Below, piece after piece: positions 27,536 through 38,458 of a stretch of 64,000 nt of DNA; within the stretch, counting starts at the first letter, position 1; each line of letters starts with the position of its first letter. The translations under genes and the position numbers were made by a program. The stretch is taken from the NCBI GenBank assembly GCA_963701665.1, contig OY969622.1, forward strand, positions 320,001-384,000. The letters are read 5' to 3'. The stretch comes from Candidatus Babeliales bacterium. GTDB taxonomy: Bacteria; Babelota; Babeliae; Babelales; JANWKD01. Under the pieces are notes generated by a model that saw nothing but the letters and a program-made list of their open reading frames with translations, did no database searches and was not told the DNA's origin.

Positions 27536-27591
27536 GATATTGATTTCAGGTTACAACACATCTAGACGGTGTTTCGATCGTTTAATATCAC
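27536..27591 (+). repeat. Decayed copy 1 of the recombinase C-terminal tail sequence
   Basis: Translates DIDFRLQHI*TVFRSFNIT; matches 30833-30890. Confidence 0.75.
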
Positions 27592-27675
27592 TGGGTATAC
27601 CCGGTTGACAGACCCTATCTTTTCCTATATTATTAATTCTAATAGAATATTTACTTAATTAAGGGGCGCTTTGGG

Positions 27676-29802
27676 ATGACAATGATGCGTATTGTGTGTT
27701 TTTTTTCTTTCCTATTCTGTTTTGCTGTTCAATCAGTGGGGGCAATGGAATTAAGCTCATTGAAAGAATTTACTGATGAAGAAATAACTATTTTCATTAA
27801 GGACAATCTTCAAGAAATTCCTCGATTAGTTGGGTTATTATTAAATCAAGAAAAGCTATTCGATTTATATGATCATTTTGTTTGTGAGCAGATAGGAAAA
27901 GATGAATATATAAGAGAATTGAAAAATATTGATGCAGCTCTTTTACACATAAGCAAAACAGTACTTCATTGTCCTGAACGATTAAAAGTATTTATAAATC
28001 CAATAACCCAATATATACATCTACTTAAAAATCAAAAAAATCCCTTGAGCTTAGAACAAAAAATAAGCATTATTAAAAATCTTCGTGATAAATACGTGCA
28101 GATCAAAAATAGGTGTACAGTACTCATAGCGCAAATGAATAATGCCTATAGGCGCACCAGTTGCTTAGAAATAGCTAGTACTGATGAAAAAGATAACCCA
28201 AAAAAAAATCGACACTTAATTTCAAAACAGGAATTAGGGTTTATGGATTCATCTTTGGACTCTCATTTTTGCACTTTTATGCACAATATTTGCAGGACAC
28301 TCGAAATCCAAGGATATCTTGCCGAAGTAATTGTATTTGTTCATCAATCACTCAAAGAACTTGATCACAGACTTACTATATATAGAGAAACATTGTCGCA
28401 GAGTAATGTTTTAGAAAAAAATGAGAATGTTGGAAATATTCCTAATGCACGGCCCGGTGAATATGCCTATATAATAAAAAAACCTAAATCTCTTGAAGCT
28501 TGTTATGTTGCATATATTATTGGTGGTCTTTCAAAAGATCCTGCTGCCTTCGATAAGCTTGGTGGGATTGCCTTATCATTAATTAATCATCAAAACGAAG
28601 AAATAAGGGATTATGCAAAATTAGCATTAGCAAAAAGTAACTTTGATCGAGCCTTAGATCACTATATAAAATTAGTTAAAATTTTCTTAAAAATTTACGA
28701 CCAAGATCCAATAATGAAATACTTCGAAACAGCTTATCAAGTGAATGCTCTCAATAATCCATCAATATCTTTCCTACCTTGTTCCCTTTTTCGTTTTATG
28801 CATCTTTTAAATCAAGCAAATAACAATCTTAATGAAGTTCGAGAATATTCTGAAAAATTAACTGTTATCAACGGCTTACTCGGTTATACAGAAGAGTTTC
28901 TTAATGAATATAAGGCAAACCAAAAAACATATGCTACCAATTATAAAAGATTAAAAGACACTTTAAGAAGTTTGATGCCTAAATGTCCTACATCGCAACT
29001 GTATACTATGACTCGGTACTTAAATGAGAGTTCTTTGGAGCCATATTGTTTGGAGACTGTTCTTAAAGGTAATTTCTTAAGCGATGAAGAAATTCAAATA
29101 ATCTTAAGGATGCGAAAAAATAAGCCCACAAGCACGACAGAAGATGTGGCGGCAAATGTTGTTGATGTGAGAACAGTACCGGAAAAAAAACAAAAAAATA
29201 TAAAAAAAGTTCAGCCTAAAAAGAAAAAAAGAAGTAGAAGAAAAAATCAGGGAAAAAACAAAAAAAGAGAAGAAGCATCGGAAAAAGAAAATCCTGAAAC
29301 AAAATCTCTCGATCAAAAACAAACAAATTCACAAAAAATTCGTCTTGCGGATAAGAAAATTGCAAAAAAAATTGTTGATAGTGAAAATAATATGACACTA
29401 TCTGTATGTTGCATGAAAGATCCTGATCCTGCAGCAGGTAAACTTATAATTTACGATGATCGTGTTCAACAATGGTTCACAGATCCCCAGAAAGCACTTG
29501 CTCAAAAAGGATTTGCTGAACATGATCCACGCAGAGATACTTCTATTCCGTTCCACAGCTTTGCAAAAGACATTGACAAATACGCTCTAAAATGGGGATT
29601 CAAAAGAGCAGGCCAAAATAATCATGGAAAACATGTAACAGAAATATATTTGCCAGGCTTTATTGAAAAAGATGGAACCTTCTTCGAGGGACTTTTCGTT
29701 TACGTCATAGATGTAAAAATGCTTTGTTATCACAGATTTTTTACTATTTGTGATTGGCATCAAAAACTTGCTGATGAATGGCAAGTAGATTTTGAAGAAT
29801 AA
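27676..29802 (+). CDS. Large secreted hypothetical protein with K/R-rich tract
   Basis: 708 aa; signal peptide followed by MEL; KKKKRSRRKNQGKNKKR. Confidence 0.8.
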   Translation: MTMMRIVCFFSFLFCFAVQSVGAMELSSLKEFTDEEITIFIKDNLQEIPRLVGLLLNQEKLFDLYDHFVCEQIGKDEYIRELKNIDAALLHISKTVLHCPERLKVFINPITQYIHLLKNQKNPLSLEQKISIIKNLRDKYVQIKNRCTVLIAQMNNAYRRTSCLEIASTDEKDNPKKNRHLISKQELGFMDSSLDSHFCTFMHNICRTLEIQGYLAEVIVFVHQSLKELDHRLTIYRETLSQSNVLEKNENVGNIPNARPGEYAYIIKKPKSLEACYVAYIIGGLSKDPAAFDKLGGIALSLINHQNEEIRDYAKLALAKSNFDRALDHYIKLVKIFLKIYDQDPIMKYFETAYQVNALNNPSISFLPCSLFRFMHLLNQANNNLNEVREYSEKLTVINGLLGYTEEFLNEYKANQKTYATNYKRLKDTLRSLMPKCPTSQLYTMTRYLNESSLEPYCLETVLKGNFLSDEEIQIILRMRKNKPTSTTEDVAANVVDVRTVPEKKQKNIKKVQPKKKKRSRRKNQGKNKKREEASEKENPETKSLDQKQTNSQKIRLADKKIAKKIVDSENNMTLSVCCMKDPDPAAGKLIIYDDRVQQWFTDPQKALAQKGFAEHDPRRDTSIPFHSFAKDIDKYALKWGFKRAGQNNHGKHVTEIYLPGFIEKDGTFFEGLFVYVIDVKMLCYHRFFTICDWHQKLADEWQVDFEE

Positions 29803-29818
29803 ATATTGTGACAACTGC

Positions 29819-29885
29819 TTTCACGTTACAGCACTTCCAGATGGTATTTCGATCATTTAATATCGCTCTAAAGGAATACTAAAAA
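29819..29885 (+). repeat. Decayed copy 2 of the recombinase C-terminal tail sequence
   Basis: Translates FTLQHFQMVFRSFNIALKEY*; matches 30838-30904. Confidence 0.8.
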
Positions 29886-29897
29886 TGTTTTGAGCTT

Positions 29898-30206
29898 TTA
29901 ACTTGCTGGTTTTAAATGAAAAGCAAATACCGCAAGAAAAAAACCAATTATTGAAATTATTTTAAATAATTTTTGATTCATTTTTTCTGCAGGAGAAATC
30001 CCACCGTATGTTTGAATTTCCCAGCCTTTTTGACCTAAAACTGATGTTGCTATTGGGATAATACTAAAAGATTGGAACCCTTGGATAAAGCTCTTAGAAA
30101 AAAAATGAAAAGTGTTTATCCAAATTGCCAAGCAATGAATGAAACATATCAGTATAAATGATATAATAGCTGCTTTACAATATGACTTTATGACATTTTG
30201 AATCAT
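29898..30206 (-). CDS. Small membrane hypothetical protein
   Basis: 102 aa with hydrophobic segments and an AAGG RBS. Confidence 0.55.
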   Translation of the reverse strand: MIQNVIKSYCKAAIISFILICFIHCLAIWINTFHFFSKSFIQGFQSFSIIPIATSVLGQKGWEIQTYGGISPAEKMNQKLFKIISIIGFFLAVFAFHLKPAS

Positions 30207-30244
30207 AATAATAACCTTAAAACATTAAAAGACTGGCCGTGCCA

Positions 30245-30387
30245 GCCCAGTCTTCGCTTGCAATGGAATGCCTTCGAAGTGAAACTGAGCTTCGACGGGC
30301 AATCTACGCCATCATTCCGTTAAAGGAACTGGCGAAGCCAATCGTAGCCAAATTACACATCGAAGTTTTTCCCCATGCAGGCGTAGA
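30245..30387 (-). repeat. Palindromic repeat downstream of GIY-YIG, homologous to the tRNA-Ala 3' flank
   Basis: Reverse complement aligns with 51477-51613. Confidence 0.85.
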
Positions 30388-30391
30388 ATTA

Positions 30392-30634
30392 TTATAGCAG
30401 TCTTTTCTTTCTAAATTCCCTACCCGATCCAGATTTTAGAAATTCTTCAAATGCATATGCTTTTAATTTATCTTGAAATGCTGCATAAAAAAACAATTTC
30501 CAAGGTAAATATTTTGCGGTATGTGGTGTTGTCCCAGCATTATGATTAGAAAGTCTTTTTTCTAAATCCTCAGTACAACCAACATATATCTGATTAGGGA
30601 GATTTATGGATTGGATAATATAAACGTAATGCAT
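30392..30634 (-). CDS. GIY-YIG nuclease family protein
   Basis: YVYII..IYVGCT.DL.KRL..HN...E.FLKSG.GR motif. Confidence 0.92.
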   Translation of the reverse strand: MHYVYIIQSINLPNQIYVGCTEDLEKRLSNHNAGTTPHTAKYLPWKLFFYAAFQDKLKAYAFEEFLKSGSGREFRKKRLL

Positions 30635-30671
30635 CTGGTGAGTCCAAAGAAAATAAAATTTATTAAATGTT

Positions 30672-30790
30672 GGCCTGCCGGTCCTCCTGCGCCAAGGCTC
30701 CGGCGGACAGCCTACGTTTTCACTTTTCTCTTAGTATCAATTTCATTTAAAAAGATGGCCGCGCCAGCCGGAGTTCGGAAGAACGTAGGC
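30672..30790 (-). repeat. Palindromic repeat upstream of GIY-YIG
   Basis: GCCTACGTT...AACGTAGGC stem plus a CCTCCTGCGCCAAGGCTCCGGCGGAC hairpin; same architecture as 30245-30387. Confidence 0.65.
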
Positions 30791-30901
30791 TGGTGTCACA
30801 TAGTGGATGTATTCAGGAACAATATTTTGACCATAGATTTTACGTTACAGCACATCCAGACGGTGTTTCGATCATTTAATATCGCCCTAGAAGAATGCTA
30901 A
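30791..30901 (+). other. Putative severed C-terminal tail of the serine recombinase (distal att junction)
   Basis: WCHIVDVFRNNILTIDFTLQHIQTVFRSFNIALEEC* begins with the same TGGTGT (Trp-Cys) codons that end the recombinase (QA-WC-AR*). Confidence 0.65.
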
Positions 30902-30953
30902 AAAACGCCTCCTGGTTATTGGAAGATTAATGTTTATTTTTTTAAAAAGATTG

Positions 30954-32159
30954 TTAAAAAAGAGTTACAAGAAGAGTTTTTATGAATAACTCCTGTGCCA
31001 AAGGTTTTGTTTGTTTGTTATATTTTTCAAAACTTAATGAATTTGTATCAAAATTTTTTACAAATTCTGACAGTGCTTTAAGTGAAAGGAATGGAATAGT
31101 AAGAGCTGCTCCAGTGAGAGGATGAGGACTTGTTCTGGCATCACCCCAAAGAATAATTGGCCTTCCTTGATAGGAAATAGCTCCTTCTGTGGCAAGTGCT
31201 GGAATAAAATTGACAAAGGAAATAACATCAGTCGCATCAGAAAATGGTATGGATGTGGGTTGATTTTTTTTTGTAGCATAAAGATACCAGTAAATTGCTG
31301 GATTATTTGGCACTAATGAGAATTTTGTGTCATTGGGTTTAATTGCTGCTAATCTTTTTATTTGTGATTGTACTCCGTTGCCAACCAAAGAGACTTTAAA
31401 ACCCCAATTAACGTTTTCTCCTGATATTCGTTCTTTCTTTAATCCCGGTAAAAGTTTAGTTTCTGATTCATATCGCAATGCAGCAACTCCATGAGTTGTG
31501 TATTCAGGAAAATTTTTAAAGTTAAATTTCTTTATAAATTTAGGATTTTTCTGCTTTGCTAAAGTATTTGCTCCAGTTGATAGAATGATTACTTGCGCAT
31601 CATCTTGAATTTCTTTTAATTGCGTTTTTTTTCCATAAAGAATATCTACTTGATGCTTTTGACAGATATGAGCAAGGGCATTTTGAAAGTCACCTATAGC
31701 GATTCGATAGGAACGAAGCTTAGTAGGATTATCTAGTTCCATTTCAAATTGAATAAGTTGTTGTTCTTTTAAAAATAGATCAAGCTCTGGGAATTCATTT
31801 TGAATGAACTGAGGAACATTAATGGAAACATTTTGCCAGCGTCGATCAAATTCTTCCTTTGTTCGCTTTTCGTGTACACAAACCCTGTGACCATCTCGAG
31901 CTAATGCAAGTGCTGCTATAAGACCACTTGGTCCAGCTCCTAAAATAGCTACCTTCTTTGAATCACAAGATGCAATATCATTATCGTTAGGATATTCGTA
32001 TGTTTCTGTAGGTGCGTTGTAGTGAGGATTCCGAATGAAAAATTCGCGAATTAGGTCTCGATTATTGTAATGAGGATTATCAGATAGAATCTCTTGGGCT
32101 TTTTTAATTACTAGAGGAACTAATTGTTCTGTTGCAGAATTTTGAAAATTTTCCTCCAT
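30954..32159 (-). CDS. FAD-dependent monooxygenase/oxidoreductase
   Basis: VAILGAGPSGL, HEKR and WGDA...HPLTG motifs. Confidence 0.8.
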   Translation of the reverse strand: MEENFQNSATEQLVPLVIKKAQEILSDNPHYNNRDLIREFFIRNPHYNAPTETYEYPNDNDIASCDSKKVAILGAGPSGLIAALALARDGHRVCVHEKRTKEEFDRRWQNVSINVPQFIQNEFPELDLFLKEQQLIQFEMELDNPTKLRSYRIAIGDFQNALAHICQKHQVDILYGKKTQLKEIQDDAQVIILSTGANTLAKQKNPKFIKKFNFKNFPEYTTHGVAALRYESETKLLPGLKKERISGENVNWGFKVSLVGNGVQSQIKRLAAIKPNDTKFSLVPNNPAIYWYLYATKKNQPTSIPFSDATDVISFVNFIPALATEGAISYQGRPIILWGDARTSPHPLTGAALTIPFLSLKALSEFVKNFDTNSLSFEKYNKQTKPLAQELFIKTLLVTLF

Positions 32160-32249
32160 TGCAGCAAGAAAGCTAATGCTTGAGAAAATAATTAAAACAA
32201 TTGTTTTTTTATTAATAAAAATATTTCTGATTTGTTCTATAGCTTTTTC

Positions 32250-32552
32250 CTAATTAGAGTTTTTAAAAGATGAGGCAGTTTCCCATATCTCAGTGCTTAT
32301 ATTAAATGCTGGCCTAACAAGGTTGAGAAAACGATATACTGAAATCCTATCATGTTGTAACACATTATTAATAAATTGAATCGACATGCCGATTTCAATA
32401 TTATCTCCTTTGCATTCATCTACAGCAAATTTAAGATCGTCATTTAATAGCCGTATATATTTTTCGGTCTCTAAATTATTTATCATTTTTTTCCTAATGT
32501 ATGTTACAACCAATTGTTTTTTAGCCCAAAGATAACTCTGACAATTTTTCAA
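32250..32552 (-). pseudogene. Gene fragment in frame with the FAD oxidoreductase, separated by TAG
   Basis: TTG start without an obvious RBS; the frame stays open for 30 codons after the TAG into the ATG at 32159. Confidence 0.35.
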
Positions 32553-32653
32553 ATCAAGTTTCTGACGAAAAATTATTTACTTGATTTTATTTCCAAATCG
32601 AATATACTCTCCCTTTGTAGTAATTGAAGTATCTCTTCATCAAAGGAACAATC

Positions 32654-32779
32654 ATGTTCTTGCCTAACAGAACTCAGATTCTGTATCTCCCTTCACAAAA
32701 TTGGCTTGCAATGGGCCTCATGGCTATTTATTTAGTATTTCGTGAGATTATTGAGCAAGATAACTGCTGCGCAGCTTAA
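32654..32779 (+). CDS. Small hydrophobic peptide (41 aa)
   Basis: MFLPNRTQILYLPSQNWLAMGLMAIYLVFREIIEQDNCCAA*, with an AAGGA RBS and TTGATT-N16-TATACT upstream. Confidence 0.45.
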   Translation: MFLPNRTQILYLPSQNWLAMGLMAIYLVFREIIEQDNCCAA

Positions 32780-32879
32780 CCCAATCGTTAGTTCCTAAAT
32801 TCCAAAAATGGTTTTATAACCATAAAAATTTAAAAAAAGAAATTTAAGATATTTTCAAAAATATCTTGAGGAGATTTGT

Positions 32880-33116
32880 ATGAGAAATCCCCCTAGAGTA
32901 AATATAATATTATCTGTTGATGATAGAAGAAACTTTGTTGATCTTTTTGTAATATTGATTGCGGTTGACAGAAGAGTTAACGCAAGAAATAAGCCTAGAG
33001 CAAAGAAAAGCACAAAAGCAAAAACTAAGCGCAAAGAAATAGGCTCGCAAGTGCGGGCCTTGTTTTTTGTTATCAATCGTATTACCATTGAGCTCTTGAA
33101 AGGTATCTTTTTTTAA
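32880..33116 (+). CDS. Small basic protein upstream of rep
   Basis: GAGGAG RBS; co-directional with rep. Confidence 0.6.
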   Translation: MRNPPRVNIILSVDDRRNFVDLFVILIAVDRRVNARNKPRAKKSTKAKTKRKEIGSQVRALFFVINRITIELLKGIFF

Positions 33117-33135
33117 AAGCTAGTGCAGACAACAT

Positions 33136-34245
33136 ATGATCGACACCATTGTTTTTATTCTCGGCAAAGATAGCTTTCAAATCATTCATCCTGATAAATT
33201 CCAGCCTTCTGCAGCACTCTTGTTATCAACGTATTCTACAATACAGGCAAAACAGAACCCAACACGTCATGAACTCCTGAAAGGGAACTATAAGCCTCGC
33301 TTAACGCTGCAAAAGCGCCTTGATGCAAATGGCCATTTAGATCTCGTGTTAAAGGTTGAGCTTTCTTTACCAAAGCTTTTATTTGGCAATAATGTTGATG
33401 AGCTTTGCTATAAAGATTTTCCTCTAGTCATCAAAAAATTAGCGGCTGTGTTGCAGGAAATGGGCATTGAGACAACAGCGCAAGCCCTAGAGCATGCACC
33501 GCTCTCTAGCGTGCATTATGCCAAGAACATTCCCTTAACGGACGGCTCTACGCCCTATCATTTCATTAATAAAATCAAAGAAGCAAACATTAAAATCTCT
33601 CTAGACACAAACCAAACTGATTATCGCAACGATGGCCACAGTTATAAATGGCATTGCAACTCATATGAAGTTGTTTTCTATGATAAGATTCAAGATTTGG
33701 AAAAAGCCAAGAAAAGCAGCAAGCGATCGATTGATAAAGATAGTGCAATGAATCATTCGCTTTTCCCCTTTTTCAGGAAAAGAAAGAAATTTGAGATCCT
33801 TCGGATGGAAGTTCGATTGAATACACGGAAAAAAATAAAACAGTTGTTTAAAACGCTGGGGATAAAATCTGATTTAACATTAAAGAAGTTATTTAAGCCT
33901 GCAATTGCAAAGAAGGTTTTGTTGTATTATTTAGATGAACTGGAGTCAAAAAGGCCTGCCTTGCTTGATTATAAGCCTGCTCATGAAAAGGCTTTGCTTG
34001 CTGACTTAGTTCTTAATAATCCAGAATTAAGCCCTCGACAAATTATCCAGCTCTTTGGCTTAAAGCAAGCATTCAATGTTATGAGCCCTAGAGAGTTAAG
34101 AATGATATTTGCAAAATATAATCAGCGAGCTTGGTATAGGCTGATGAGTGATGCAAAGAAAGTGAAGTTGCCGATTGCACATCGGCCTCTAGCAGTTATT
34201 CGTAAAGAGTTAGCAAAGTTTAAGACATTAAATATGAAATTTTAA
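33136..34245 (+). CDS. Phage/plasmid replication initiation protein (Rep_trans/gpII-X-like)
   Basis: N-terminal MIDT, SLPKLLFGNN, FYDK and LRMEVR pattern typical of gpII/X-type rolling-circle initiators; located within an integrase island. Confidence 0.65.
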   Translation: MIDTIVFILGKDSFQIIHPDKFQPSAALLLSTYSTIQAKQNPTRHELLKGNYKPRLTLQKRLDANGHLDLVLKVELSLPKLLFGNNVDELCYKDFPLVIKKLAAVLQEMGIETTAQALEHAPLSSVHYAKNIPLTDGSTPYHFINKIKEANIKISLDTNQTDYRNDGHSYKWHCNSYEVVFYDKIQDLEKAKKSSKRSIDKDSAMNHSLFPFFRKRKKFEILRMEVRLNTRKKIKQLFKTLGIKSDLTLKKLFKPAIAKKVLLYYLDELESKRPALLDYKPAHEKALLADLVLNNPELSPRQIIQLFGLKQAFNVMSPRELRMIFAKYNQRAWYRLMSDAKKVKLPIAHRPLAVIRKELAKFKTLNMKF

Positions 34246-34256
34246 ATAGGGATTCA

Positions 34257-34808
34257 ATGGATATATCAAAACGACAAGAAAATTTTGAGCGTGCTCGTGA
34301 ATATATGAAAAAGCATATTGGCGAGCCATTAACACATGAACTTATTAATTCTATCCATGCAGAAATGGAACAAGTTCATGGATATAGAACTGGATCAGGA
34401 GCACCACCAGTTAAGAATGATTCTAAAATAGTTTATTGGCCTCCTGTAAGTAATGTTGTGTATAGTATTCCAGCAGAAATGCAGAAGCTTCTTGAATTGC
34501 ATAATCGCTCTCAAGAGCCAGCTATAGAACTTGCAGCTAAATTGCATTGGGGAATTGTTAAGATACATCCCTTTCTTGATGGCAATGGACGGACTGCACG
34601 TATCCTTTTTTCCTTCGTGCTTCTTAATCATGGTTATGATGATAATGTATGTAAAAAACTAGAAGAACATTTTGAATCCAATAAGAAAGAATATTTTGAT
34701 GCTCTTGATGATGGCCAAATATCATATCTAAGTTATGATAATGCAAGTCAGCAATGGTTAGCATATGTATGCAAAGCATACGAAGAAGTTAAATCGTTAT
34801 TGTCTTGA
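34257..34808 (+). CDS. Fic-domain protein
   Basis: Canonical HPFLDGNGRTAR motif. Confidence 0.93.
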   Translation: MDISKRQENFERAREYMKKHIGEPLTHELINSIHAEMEQVHGYRTGSGAPPVKNDSKIVYWPPVSNVVYSIPAEMQKLLELHNRSQEPAIELAAKLHWGIVKIHPFLDGNGRTARILFSFVLLNHGYDDNVCKKLEEHFESNKKEYFDALDDGQISYLSYDNASQQWLAYVCKAYEEVKSLLS

Positions 34809-34902
34809 AAATAATAATGATTAAATTTGTGAACAGCTGCTGCACAATTATAAATTTGAAGAATAGTTTAGGGTAAGACTTCAAAGAGTGCATTTAAGAG
34901 CT

Positions 34903-35253
34903 TTATTTATGCAAAGCAACTGCCTCATGTACGATTTTTGCGATTGTTTTTAGGGTAGGATTACCTTTTTTAGAGAAAGCTTGTGTAATGGTTGCTCTTG
35001 TTAGATTTGTCTTGGATGCGATGTGCGTTCTATTTACACATAAATAGGCATCCAATATTTCCATAAATGTTTCAGTGTCATTTTCGATTAAGCATTCTAG
35101 CAATGCTTTAGCAACTTCATTCTTATTTCTAAAAAATTCTGATGCTTTTGAAGCATGTAATTTTGATTCATCAATTTTAATGGGTTGCAAATCGTCTAAG
35201 GATAATACGTGCTTTTTTAATGTCTTTTTCTTGTTCATTTTTGTGTCCACCAA
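34903..35253 (-). CDS. Addiction module antidote (HTH antitoxin)
   Basis: S.KGNPTL.T HTH motif, downstream of and overlapping the toxin gene. Confidence 0.85.
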   Translation of the reverse strand: MVDTKMNKKKTLKKHVLSLDDLQPIKIDESKLHASKASEFFRNKNEVAKALLECLIENDTETFMEILDAYLCVNRTHIASKTNLTRATITQAFSKKGNPTLKTIAKIVHEAVALHK

Positions 35254-35470
35254 TAATTAAAACAATTTTCTTATGACCAATACGACTAAAGTATACTCTC
35301 CAGCCATTCTTCCATCTTAATTCAGCAAGATTATCACCTAACGGTTTTGCATCGCCAAGGTGTTCATCGTGTTCTATACGACTTATTCGAGCTTTAACCT
35401 TGACTTGTTCTTTCTTGGTTAAATTATTCAACCAGTCTAAATAATCATCTGTTTCTTGGATTTGTATCAT
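35177..35470 (-). CDS. RelE/ParE (HigB-like) toxin, addiction module killer protein
   Basis: WL..L...RI.RI...GD.K.LG...ELR...G.RVYF...GG.K..Q.KDI motif. Confidence 0.88.
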   Translation of the reverse strand: MIQIQETDDYLDWLNNLTKKEQVKVKARISRIEHDEHLGDAKPLGDNLAELRWKNGWRVYFSRIGHKKIVLIIGGHKNEQEKDIKKARIILRRFATH

Positions 35471-35557
35471 GTTTTAGCCAAATAAAGAATTTATTACCTA
35501 TCTACTGACTATTATATCATGCGCATATTATAATTGTCAATGGTATGGTAAAAATTC

Positions 35558-35663
35558 ATAAGATGCAGGGTTTGGAACCTGTATTAATTCTTACATGGGT
35601 TCTGAATGCATCCATCAAGAGCCGGTTACTTCACTCCAGAAATAATACTTTGCTACAATGCTA
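35558..35663 (+). repeat. ~105-bp direct repeat, copy 1
   Basis: Aligns with 36775-36884; contains a GATGCA..GAACC.TGTA/TACA.GGTTC..TGCATC hairpin. Confidence 0.85.
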
Positions 35664-35669
35664 ATGAAA

Positions 35670-36662
35670 TTACTTTATTAAAAAATCTTCTAATTCTGGA
35701 ACTATCTTACCGTTGAAAAATTCCTTAATATTCACAGCATCAGGCGGTATTGCTTGACCACTAGAATTCAAAATGAAATTCTCACCTAAAGTTTTTACAT
35801 TTTCATAACCAAGACTTTTCAATACTGGTAGAATGTTATCTATATGAACACCACCAGCCAAAATAAAAATATTGTCATTAATACTTTGATACATATTATG
35901 CATTATAAGAGCATTTAAAAGTTGTGAATCATAATAAAAGATTAAAGCTTCCTTCTTTTTTTCGGATGACCAATTTAAAGGAATTCTTCCATATGCTTTT
36001 TCTAAAGCATTATCGTATTGTTCTTTATATGTTAATAAAGGCAATATGTCTTTTAACGACTTCTCAGAATTTTTTAATGCCTCAAAAAAATCTTTACAGT
36101 CTTCTAAAATGGAATAGTAAATATCTAATATTTTTTTATAGTATGCATTGAGAATTTCATTATCATCATAACCTTTTATTTCTTGGGCAATTTTATTTGA
36201 AACATTTAAAGCAGAAGAAGCTTTTATATAGCCCCAGAGTGAAACTTTCTTAGGAGATCTGAATTCTACTGTTTTATTAACGATGCCATTATAATGACAA
36301 CGAGAAGCTAATGAATTAAGAGGACAGCCTGAGGCATCGTTTTTTACTTTCTCAAGTTCTTCTCGTGATCTATAATAATTTGAAGATTCATATTTTAAAG
36401 GATCTTCGAATATCATTTTCATTCCCTGATTGGTAGTGGCTTGATCTTCCACGATGACATTTGCATTTAATGATTTAGCTGATAATAAAATATCATTGGT
36501 TTGTGCATGACAGATGTTTAAGGGCACATCGCCATGAAAATCATAAAATAAATAAATGATTTTATTATTGTTTGGCAATTGGTCAATTTTATAGATGTAA
36601 CTAAAAGCAGGAAAAATAATATTACATAAAGATAATAAAATTATATAGAATTTTTTGCCCAT
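35670..36662 (-). CDS. Secreted hypothetical protein (cargo)
   Basis: 330 aa, signal peptide, very AT-rich, GGAG RBS. Confidence 0.75.
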   Translation of the reverse strand: MGKKFYIILLSLCNIIFPAFSYIYKIDQLPNNNKIIYLFYDFHGDVPLNICHAQTNDILLSAKSLNANVIVEDQATTNQGMKMIFEDPLKYESSNYYRSREELEKVKNDASGCPLNSLASRCHYNGIVNKTVEFRSPKKVSLWGYIKASSALNVSNKIAQEIKGYDDNEILNAYYKKILDIYYSILEDCKDFFEALKNSEKSLKDILPLLTYKEQYDNALEKAYGRIPLNWSSEKKKEALIFYYDSQLLNALIMHNMYQSINDNIFILAGGVHIDNILPVLKSLGYENVKTLGENFILNSSGQAIPPDAVNIKEFFNGKIVPELEDFLIK

Positions 36663-36774
36663 TCTTGTCTCTCCATTTCAAATTGAAATAAGCTAAGGAT
36701 AGATGCCAAGATAATATTATAATTTAATTTTATAAAATTGCGGATCTTCTTGTCAAGCTTATAATAAATGGCCT

Positions 36775-36884
36775 ATAAGATTCAGGATTTTGAATCTGTA
36801 TTAATTCTTAAATTGGTTCTGAATGCATCCCATCAAGAGCCTGTAATTTCACTCTCGAAATAATACTTTTATGCTACAATGCTA
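36775..36884 (+). repeat. ~105-bp direct repeat, copy 2 (recombinase upstream region)
   Basis: Aligns with 35558-35663 and ends in an extended -10-like TGCTACAAT. Confidence 0.85.
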
Positions 36885-36929
36885 TGGTCTAAAAATTACA
36901 TAATAATCATAAGCATTAGAGTATTCATC

Positions 36930-38396
36930 ATGAAAGCTATTGTCATTGCTCGTGTCAGCACAGAAGAACAAAAAGAAGCGGGCTTGTCATTGCCAGCTCA
37001 AGTTATGCGCCTTGAGAATTATTGCAAAAGCAAAGATTTTGATATTGTTCAAAGCTTTAGTTTTGATGAGAGCGCCTATAAAGATGATCGTGCGGAATTT
37101 GATCGCATCTTTGATTTCATCATGCAGCAAAAAGAAAAGATTGCCATTTGTTGTGATAAAGTCGATCGGCTTTCTCGCAATATGTTTGATAAGCGCGTAT
37201 CATTTCTCTATGAAAAGGCATTGCGTGATGAAATAGAACTGCACTTTGTCTCAGATGGTCAGATCATTAATAGCCGCATTTCTGCATCTGCAGCAGAAAA
37301 ATTCCATTTTGGCATCAGCCTCGGTTTGGCAAAATATTATTCAGATGCCATTAGTGACAATGTCAAACGAGCGTTGGAGCAGAAATTACGAAAAGGCGAG
37401 TGGCCTGCAAAAGCGCCCTATGGCTATCAAAACGTGCGCTACGCCGATGGCAAAGCCGATATTATTGTTGATGAATATTCATCACGCATCATTCAAAAGG
37501 CTTTTGAACTCTATGCAACAGAAGCATTTTCAATGGATCTACTACGGCAGAAATTGAACAAAGAATATGGCTTGAATTGGTCGAAAGGGTATGTGGATCA
37601 TCTGCTTAAGCTGCAATTTTATTGTGGTATCATGGTCTGGAATGACAAAATGTTTCCTCATCGTTATCCGCCTCTTATCTCAACAGATCTTTTTAAGAAG
37701 GTGCAACAAGTGAAAATGAACTTTAACAAAAAGCCCGTCAAATATGCCGGCATGCCGTATATCTATCGTGGGCTCATTCGTTGTGCAGAATGCGACCTTG
37801 CTATAACGCCGGAAAAGCATAAAGGCTATGTGTATTATCATTGCACACAATATAACGGCAAGCATGGAGCGCAGTGGCTACGACAAGAGGAAATCACCAA
37901 GCAACTAGAAAAAGTTTTTAAGAATTTGATAATGCCACAAGAAATAGTGCAGCAAGTTGTAGCAACACTCAATGCTGTTCATTTGGAAAAAATCGAATTT
38001 CATAACAAACATTTTACGAGGCTTACTAAAGAACACAAAGAGACCACTAAAATGCTCGATTCTCTTTATATGGATAAACTCAAGGGGAGAATTACTGAGA
38101 GCGAGTATGACAGATTTTACACAACACTCCGTGATCAAATCACTGATATTGATATTCAACTAGGCCAATTACAAGAGGCTGAAGATAACTACTATATTAC
38201 GGCAAAATACATACTGGATCTATCAAGCCGAGCATATGAATTGTTTGTGAGTTCTGAAGTTGAGGAAAAACGGCAGCTTATCAAGCTTATACTATCGAAC
38301 TTAAGGCTAGAGGGGAAAAAGCTCGTATTTGACGCTAAAAAACCGTTTGATTTGATACTAGATTATGGGGATCGTCAAGCATGGTGTGCCCGATAG
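36930..38396 (+). CDS. Large serine recombinase
   Basis: ARVST catalytic Ser, DRLSRN, APYGY recombinase domain, C..C...YYHC zinc ribbon and coiled coil. The last 5 codons lie inside tRNA-Arg. Confidence 0.95.
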   Translation: MKAIVIARVSTEEQKEAGLSLPAQVMRLENYCKSKDFDIVQSFSFDESAYKDDRAEFDRIFDFIMQQKEKIAICCDKVDRLSRNMFDKRVSFLYEKALRDEIELHFVSDGQIINSRISASAAEKFHFGISLGLAKYYSDAISDNVKRALEQKLRKGEWPAKAPYGYQNVRYADGKADIIVDEYSSRIIQKAFELYATEAFSMDLLRQKLNKEYGLNWSKGYVDHLLKLQFYCGIMVWNDKMFPHRYPPLISTDLFKKVQQVKMNFNKKPVKYAGMPYIYRGLIRCAECDLAITPEKHKGYVYYHCTQYNGKHGAQWLRQEEITKQLEKVFKNLIMPQEIVQQVVATLNAVHLEKIEFHNKHFTRLTKEHKETTKMLDSLYMDKLKGRITESEYDRFYTTLRDQITDIDIQLGQLQEAEDNYYITAKYILDLSSRAYELFVSSEVEEKRQLIKLILSNLRLEGKKLVFDAKKPFDLILDYGDRQAWCAR

Positions 38397-38458
38397 GATT
38401 CGAACCTATGACCTACGGATTAGAAATCCGTTGCTCTATCCAGCTGAGCTACGGGCAC
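38382..38458 (-). tRNA. tRNA-Arg(TCT)
   Basis: GTGCCCG acceptor stem, ACGGA-TT-TCT-AA-TCCGT anticodon arm, GGTTCGAATCC T-loop and encoded CCA. Confidence 0.97.

Follow-up and report, generated by a model that had tools for sequence, protein, structure and literature searches.

A tRNA-associated element of a Candidatus Babeliales bacterium that carries its attachment site within its large serine recombinase gene

The element at tRNA-Arg(TCT) and its divided recombinase gene

A 7.6-kb element occupies the 3' end of a tRNA-Arg(TCT) gene of a Candidatus Babeliales bacterium (contig OY969622.1, positions 320,001 to 384,000), and its insertion site lies within its own recombinase gene. This 64,000-nt stretch is termed the window, and coordinates are window positions; other elements of the source genome are given by locus or genome position. 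The gene (36930..38396, plus strand) encodes a large serine recombinase (LSR), recognized by its Pfam domains, invariant residues and fold, and the integrated short form comprises 488 aa when counted from the ATG at 36930, the start used by homologues. Its 3' end lies within the target tRNA gene, placed by ARAGORN on the minus strand (38382..38458), wherein the protein ends W-C-A-R-stop in the tRNA antisense, as had been described in an earlier reading made from the letters alone (the sequence-only reading). The right attachment site, attR (38364..38387, plus strand), consists of an arm encoded by the LSR gene, with the conserved sequence GATnRTCAA, and the right core TGGTGT, as judged from column counts in 30 pairs of sites. 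The left core, attL (30791..30796, plus strand), is an exact 6-bp match to 38382-38387, is abutted by a repeat found at tRNA ends and forms the left boundary of the element. At 30791 the same TGGTGT opens a frame of 36 codons and a stop (30791..30901, plus strand), likewise pointed out in the sequence-only reading; it is the detached 3' end of the recombinase gene (the tail), in frame with the LSR after excision, and the element-side arm of attL.

The match between the two cores covers exactly 6 bp, with no further identity on either side. Joining the two copies predicts a circle of 7591 bp in which the recombinase frame would encode 520 aa rather than 488, with 34 residues replacing the two terminal ones. 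The size and the in-frame tail given in the sequence-only reading were thus confirmed in the sequence, while no circle junction was seen; the tRNA is whole in both states, again as predicted. We regard this architecture of split gene, matching cores, intact tRNA and conserved tail as very probably correct.

Taken alone, the core is weak, for TGGTGT occurs three times on the plus strand in the 20 kb to the left, and the caution that a 6-bp core can arise by chance was well placed. A chance 6-mer was rejected on the basis of the tail match, two sister elements, the repeat at the boundary, the arrangement in a related genome and the related loci. A hidden Markov model (HMM) of the tail, trained on 29 other loci with the window row and the core-encoded columns left out, scores the frame at 30791 at 38.6 bits (E=1.5e-9) in a search of the genome's 52,165 stop-to-stop segments; its three other matches below E=1e-4 are the left end of the tRNA-Glu element and two orphan tails. 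The sister element at tRNA-Glu in the same genome measures 4341 bp, with the core TGGCGT and a 35-codon tail. That at tRNA-Arg(CCT) measures about 13.1 kb, with the core TGGTGC and a 27-codon tail, which was picked by its core and flank, not by HMM; an HMM of the second tail type did not find it. All three left cores of the genome's elements are abutted by the tRNA-end repeat, which adjoins the CCA in 19 of 36 tRNA genes versus 42 of 32,882 TGG sites genome-wide, the motif having been defined after the sites were seen and widened to fit the one at 30791.

The host-side flank outside the element (30392..30790, minus strand) holds a GIY-YIG gene (30392-30634; PF01541) and tRNA-end palindromic repeats. 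In a genome of the same genus (G001), nothing separates tRNA-Arg(TCT) from the repeat and a GIY-YIG gene 66% identical to the one left of 30791, as an empty site is predicted to look. The island boundary in a related genome, a point on which the sequence-only reading had been prepared to be refuted, therefore agrees with 30791; G001 is another species with decayed remnants of its own further left, and it shows the arrangement, not the parental allele. The repeats that stand right after the CCA in 19 of 36 tRNA genes are palindromic (30200-30790 in the window), and a small GIY-YIG gene comes next at three loci; in G001 the repeat/GIY-YIG unit appears to have pushed aside an older LSR and cut it short. 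The unit may be mobile in its own right.

A decayed second tail (29802..29885, plus strand; 85% identical to 30821-30904, E=9.7e-5) is the scar of an older element at the same tRNA, and the gene next to it is the same 102-aa gene that follows a tail in another genome (G003). This orphan copy and a further one at 27539-27592 mark older insertions, at least three being stacked at the tRNA-Arg site. Elsewhere, an orphan tail at genome position 704201 (minus strand) is nearly intact, with no tRNA nearby; the gene preceding it is presumably ftsW/rodA-like.

The recombinase, its tail and the related loci

The LSR contains Resolvase, Recombinase and zinc-ribbon domains in this order, all above the Pfam cut-off, and R8, S10, D79, R80 and R83 are invariant in 55 LSR sequences. 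In the AlphaFold model of the homologue P0119, a natural long form that carries a tail of this type, a coiled coil (helices 335-382 and 388-415) is inserted in the zinc domain, and the fold matches that of solved serine integrases. The family profile aligns with the A118/LI integrase up to position 466, and the short form spans the whole alignment; residues 1-486 stay together on integration, and the catalytic domain is not detached. Judged from its sequence, no part of a normal integrase is missing from the integrated form, which is no crippled fragment, the tail being an extra. The nearest NCBIfam models are XisF, CcrA and CcrB, all below cut-off. Family scans of the element proteins recognized no separate recombination directionality factor (RDF) among the open reading frames (ORFs) of the element, in agreement with the sequence-only reading, such factors being too diverse to be excluded.

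The survey of related loci comprised 79 loci with 83 LSR ends. An HMM built from three tail sequences gives 35 matches at E<=0.01 in 32 of the 79 loci, every one of them in the orientation of the LSR and 5' of an LSR end; among loci with at least 8 kb of upstream sequence, the tail is present in 27 of 43. Homologues with a similar tail, which the sequence-only reading had proposed to look for, are thus represented by P0119 and by these loci. The entropy of the tail by codon position is 0.97, 0.57 and 1.37, variation being highest at third positions. In-frame stops occur in none of 32 tails, versus 31 and 32 of 32 in the other two frames, the open frame being partly built in by the protein HMM with which the tails were found. 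Protein-like conservation extends over about 30 codons, well past an att arm of 20-25 bp. By this pattern of variation the tail evolves as protein, a short and hydrophobic one. A separate small gene was rejected as its identity, since the tail reads in frame with LSRs in natural fusions (an upstream start was not properly tested). At L108 and L109, the tail in G001 and G003 is broken at nearly the same codon by a short repeat-like insert.

The LSR family numbers 2091 proteins at E<=1e-30, and at E<=1e-40 a match is present in 88 of the 251 genomes searched from the class. Among the best 120 homologues, 77 stop no more than 4 residues from the invariant W485, 32 continue through the antisense of the tRNA T-loop, 10 have other longer ends and one is truncated; this C-terminal end is thus unconstrained. 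Integrated C-termini range from 3 to more than 60 residues with no common end, on which ground a tRNA-antisense peptide serving as a designed degron was rejected. ARAGORN starts the tRNA exactly at the W codon for 41 of the 83 LSR ends. The targets of the family are tRNA-Arg, -Glu, -Asp, -Asn and -Gln, with none at ssrA (tmRNA), and the target changed 13 times on a quick tree from an unfinished search, used only to show such changes. Element sizes across the related loci range from 1.3 to 11.4 kb. In tandem arrays (L045, L053, L100 and L121), a later element at the same tRNA end puts a tail in frame on the earlier LSR.

Position of the crossover was examined in 30 attL/attR pairs (the 35 tail matches minus 5 partial ones). 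Core nucleotides 3-6 equal those of the locus's own attR in 25 pairs, compared to a mean of 11.2 and a maximum of 19 in 10,000 shufflings, and six different cores are matched overall when this genome's elements are counted. Identity per position is 29, 26, 28 and 28 of 30 for nucleotides 3-6, and 21 and 16 of 30 for nucleotides 1-2. Conservation of the former and not of the latter places the crossover at tRNA positions 74-71, and the encoded CCA is therefore not needed. At L034, L036, L044, L047, L052, L058, L061 and L078, in hosts of the tRNA-Asn clade, the left sites are without the first two core bases and the right sites read TGG; in these cases the element therefore appears to supply an encoded CCA to a tRNA gene previously without one.

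The Rep protein, a candidate nick site and the cargo

The element also codes for a rolling-circle initiator-like protein of 369 aa (Rep; 33136..34245, plus strand). The sequence-only reading had called it gpII/X-like, and both its gpII/Rep_trans-type fold and a match to PHROG 702 (E=4.7e-5) are in keeping with this. The model has a pLDDT of 86, and its sole PDB matches at Z of at least 8 are RepDE (4cwc; Z 9.1, rmsd 5.0, 226 aligned) and a Geobacillus initiator (4cij; Z 8.3, rmsd 4.7, 210 aligned), the next row having Z 5.7; Foldseek returned nothing from the PDB at E<=0.001. The Inoviridae G2P model matches Rep at E=2e-6, PF05144 matches one of 34 family members, and in the ESM Atlas the protein falls into Phage_CRI clusters, of low recognition value. 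The motifs of Rep_trans proteins are N' (D), I (RxD), II, III (YxKxxE) and IV (LxRxE), as given in the main text of PMC5714925. In the 34 sequences of the Rep family, D3, Y182-K184 and E225 are invariant, and R223 and D187 occur in 33 each; the motif I position reads HYxKN, unlike RxD, and identity to known initiators is 10-13%. The likeness to Rep_trans initiators (pT181/pC221 RepDE, pSTK1) and inovirus G2P thus lies in the same fold and in the invariant N-terminal D, YxK and RxE-type residues. Together, the PHROG 702, Phage_CRI, PF05144, G2P and PDB fold matches support a putative Rep_trans-type rolling-circle initiator. Rep is a core gene, present in 42 of the 79 loci.

A candidate nick site for Rep, either a double-strand origin or an oriT, lies inside the LSR gene at codons 386-390 (38085..38098, plus strand; predicted join GGnGn^ATTACT), and is suggested by synonymous conservation and by the edges of truncated LSR copies. 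Codons 386-391 form the top window of synonymous conservation in 42 full-length LSR genes (1.27 bits, median 0.17). The site is 3.8 kb from rep and about 290 bp before attP. At many loci the LSR gene is reduced to its last 100 codons, and we assembled 23 LSR copies truncated at the 5' end. Genome contigs supplied 12 of them, metagenome contigs 3, a new pattern search centred on a tRNA-Asn-clade genome 4, and Babeliae 4. The LSR part begins 0-7 nt from the ATT of codon 388 in 15 of the 23, near it in 2 and elsewhere in 6, in searches that required sequence downstream of the site, which leaves breaks on its 3' side under-represented. The five bases that precede the join are similar to the native sequence, with G at -2 in all 15, at -4 in 12 and at -5 in 11. 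In L085, the 40 bases before the join are identical to the cargo right after the tail in the full element L078, which then differs, and L095 is related to L068 in the same way. Copies joined to left-end cargo in this manner fit faulty rolling-circle termination: copying would start at the site on the circle, run through attP and the tail and stop at a cryptic site in the cargo, and the resulting mini-circle would integrate in trans. Such truncated products need a circle that contains attP, and are therefore indirect evidence for the circle.

We lean towards the view that the conserved site in codons 386-390 is the Rep nick site. The last 300 bp of the gene would then likely be coding sequence, attP arm and predicted origin at once. 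It is also possible, if appreciably less probable, that the site is not a vegetative origin and serves instead as an oriT, with the Rep_trans protein nicking it in the manner of a MOBT-like relaxase, or as the hotspot of another enzyme. Rep_trans proteins do include the relaxases of ICEBs1 and Tn916 (main text of PMC5714925), and the exact breakpoint has been seen in the tRNA-Asn clade alone; against this, neither a coupling protein nor a conjugation gene is present in the element, the closest relative of Rep is inovirus G2P, and the L085 join shares no dinucleotide between cargo and LSR site, which makes a serine-recombinase crossover unlikely. Two divergent LSRs are without the motif, and the one such element checked has a Toprim primase-like gene instead.

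A second cluster of synonymous conservation, in the window 38240-38310 (LSR codons 437-459), could represent a Rep binding site or another cis element. Locus L150 (G000:C1:645900-660000) is a third element, with a 33%-identical LSR and the same split design; it also holds a Toprim primase-like gene, a SpoVG-like gene and a PD-(D/E)XK nuclease, with no Rep_trans and no internal motif.

The remaining genes are mostly cargo. To the right of the tail lie a FAD-binding oxidoreductase-like protein of 401 aa (30954..32159, minus strand; Rossmann-fold Pfam), found in none of the 79 loci, and a 100-aa ORF (32250..32552, minus strand) with no Pfam or PHROG match. A 78-aa ORF upstream of rep (32880..33116, plus strand) has no match in Pfam, PHROGs, NCBIfam or the ESM Atlas and recurs in 4 of 79 loci. 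Rep is followed by a Fic-domain protein (34257..34808, plus strand; PF02661, E=6.6e-18) and, on the minus strand, by a toxin-antitoxin pair (34903..35470) that is likely a stabilizing cargo and consists of a RelE/ParE-type toxin (35177-35470) and a helix-turn-helix antitoxin (34903-35253), with TIGR02683 and PF21716 above and TIGR02684 below cut-off. The Fic, toxin and antitoxin genes occur in 2, 2 and 1 of the 79 loci, respectively, and were rejected as core genes. A 330-aa ORF without family match (35670..36662, minus strand) is bracketed by the region upstream of the LSR gene (36775-36884) and a second copy of it (35558..35663, plus strand; 86%, by sequence comparison). This duplicate of 110 bp gives the appearance that the cargo entered with a copy of the promoter region. 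Scans of 7 element proteins against PHROGs and 14 against Pfam revealed no capsid or conjugation family, and no inovirus coat or pI/Zot morphogenesis genes were found among the scanned ORFs; the gene inventory of the sequence-only reading (Fic, a toxin-antitoxin pair, no capsid or conjugation genes) is upheld by these scans. Promoter and terminator scans gave results at chance (37 versus 33.7, and 7 versus 5.1).

Known systems and the role of the tail

The idea of an integrase split by its att site is not new: going by the main texts, it was proposed in 2011 for the serine recombinase DsiB and shown for the tyrosine enzymes of Mx8 and SSV1. Phage LSRs (A118/LI, Bxb1, phiC31, SPbeta) have the same domain order and fold as the present enzyme, and none of the solved chains aligned has this tail. 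The Mx8 integrase is a tyrosine recombinase of a tailed phage, whereas here a serine enzyme is found on a non-viral element of 4-13 kb. The two share an attP within the recombinase gene that replaces the C-terminus, here that of an LSR. In IntP of Mx8 (and Mx9), attP lies inside int and attB is of the tRNA type, and the new 3' end changes and does not abolish activity (main text of PMC6070905). The suicidal integrases of SSV1, pTN3 and pT26-2 also have att within the integrase gene, with chimeras from neighbouring elements (main text of PMC8371274). In these archaeal tyrosine enzymes, the gene is cut into int(N) and int(C) and the catalytic part is lost from the rest; here a serine enzyme has only about 34 C-terminal residues moved, and its catalytic domain stays expressed. 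The sequence-only reading had named SSV1-type integrases as the established case, which holds as stated, but the serine DsiB and the C-terminal swap of Mx8 are closer precedents.

The CcrB-like serine recombinase gene of DsiB always overlaps, by its 3' end, the att site at ssrA, and it was proposed that the enzyme reaches full function only in the circular state or next to a second, adjoining island from which the 3' fragment comes (McMurdie et al. 2011, main text of PMC3146451). The likeness, compared by description, lies in the overlap of the LSR 3' end with the att site and in the tandem arrays. DsiB islands have a tmRNA target and a DsiA/ParB-like/Mom module; the present element has a tRNA target and a Rep_trans initiator, with none of those genes among its ORFs. 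The DsiB text, without its supplements, delimits or tests no conserved tail (PMC3146451). The element works like Mx8 and DsiB and is a member of neither, given its tRNA-end target, its lack of a DsiA module and its Rep_trans initiator. The literature searched (main texts without supplements) showed neither an account of this family nor an origin placed within a serine integrase gene; 'tRNA' has no occurrences in the main text of Durrant et al. (PMC10083194), and the main text of Integrase-On-Demand (PMC12884075) has nothing on such elements.

The mechanism we propose starts from the integrated state, with its split gene, cores matching at tRNA positions 74-71 and intact tRNA. Excision would give the 7591-bp circle and the 520-aa enzyme; the Rep_trans-fold protein would copy this circle by rolling circle from the nick site in LSR codons 386-390; and the long enzyme would recombine attP with the tRNA end, thereby removing its own tail. 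The rarer excision would most likely be carried out by the tail-less enzyme, which keeps all normal integrase domains. In serine integrases, direction is set by a separate RDF that repositions the coiled coil (main text of PMC11722253); if the short enzyme does perform excision, the state of the gene would stand in for, or add to, such a factor. As the arrays show, a later element at the same tRNA end places its tail in frame on the earlier LSR, and early termination at cryptic GGnGn sites in the cargo may produce attP-bearing mini-circles that are re-integrated in trans. We consider this mechanism as a whole fairly probable, with the tail, rejoined on the circle, making an integration-proficient enzyme. 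A more inclusive reading is put forward tentatively, the odds being rather against it as a joint claim: a widespread tRNA-targeting rolling-circle family of Babeliae and Patescibacteria may pack three functions into the end of the integrase gene together with a built-in directionality tail, without a separate RDF, with tails swapped in arrays and mini-circles moving cargo in trans. The three functions in the last 300 bp, held just as tentatively as part of that joint reading, would be the coiled-coil return with the zinc-domain end, the Rep nick site and the attP arm.

The same tail could instead belong to a self-locking (suicidal) integrase, whose short form is inactive or nearly so and whose excision needs the long form from an incoming circle or the tail of a tandem neighbour. 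Protein-level conservation of the tail, the in-frame fusions in the arrays, and the many decayed copies and orphan tails would suit such an enzyme, as would its proposal for DsiB (main text of PMC3146451) and its demonstration for SSV1-type enzymes (main text of PMC8371274). We think it unlikely in view of the catalytic, recombinase, zinc and coiled-coil parts that the short form keeps, unlike SSV1; moreover, the tails fused in arrays are often of another type, and the repeated changes of target tRNA on the quick tree need regular excision. Less probable still is a tail that sets protein stability or dose, as degron or stabilizer, with direction coming from a small protein such as the 78-aa ORF or the SpoVG-like one. 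The tail is indeed short, hydrophobic and not confidently docked, and small uncharacterized ORFs precede rep, but C-termini with no common end speak against a designed degron, and the 78-aa ORF is present in only 4 of 79 loci. Least probable, to the point of being quite improbable, is the absence of any switch, wherein attP overlaps the gene end for compactness, the tail is dispensable and each form acts in either direction, as CcrB-like recombinases do. In the alignment the short form is complete as an integrase, and the nearest NCBIfam models, below cut-off, are XisF, CcrA and CcrB; however, the protein-like conservation extends further than an att arm would.

A number of observations weigh against the favoured reading, that of a tail which confers integration proficiency on the circle, and against its nick site, in addition to the partly built-in open frame of the tails. 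In the P0119 model the tail is a helix-loop-helix with pLDDT below 50 from residue 493 (pTM 0.43), and docking is not supported. Of the best 120 homologues, only P0119 clearly has this type of tail, most natural long forms among them having a different type and looking like tandem-array chimeras. A single tRNA-Asn clade accounts for 17 of the 25 core matches. The dyad symmetry of the rebuilt attP is weak (0.39 at the best centre, 0.14-0.33 at others), and the central dinucleotide is not fixed. Eight of the 23 truncated copies break elsewhere or only near the candidate site; the exact breakpoint is found in none of the four from Babeliae (one about 10 nt off, three at codons 343-354), and there is no notable hairpin at the site (z -0.83). 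The 78-aa ORF could also be an unrecognized directionality factor or regulator.

The search for the circle points the same way. The junction pattern was found in no stretch of viral contigs, which also held no LSR relatives, and in 8 stretches of metagenome contigs with no closed circle, namely 4 chance occurrences, one tandem array and 3 truncated LSRs whose contigs had no terminal repeats. Mapping of reads across the junction, which the sequence-only reading had suggested, showed no circle junction for a 93%-identical element in the reads of run X1; the four runs of the read search contained 5-8% of the words, the run of the source sample not being found. Plasmid records yielded LSR relatives only below 33% identity, and phage records no Rep relatives. 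The X1 element, from another sample, is about 93% identical over 30812-34172 and the toxin-antitoxin pair, and is without Fic.

What is new here is the site in LSR codons 386-390, conserved as DNA, with which the left edge of 15 of the 23 truncated copies coincides exactly, two of these copies joining it to left-end cargo of full elements. With two natural forms 34 residues apart, the 2011 proposal for DsiB becomes directly testable. For annotation, 109 of the 120 best database homologues are the integrated form, so that mined enzymes may be tested without their tails. The LSR family is common in lineages with few described mobile elements. If the tail sets direction, the recombinase would be a switch that resets itself and that could interest genome engineers, its targets being conserved tRNA ends.

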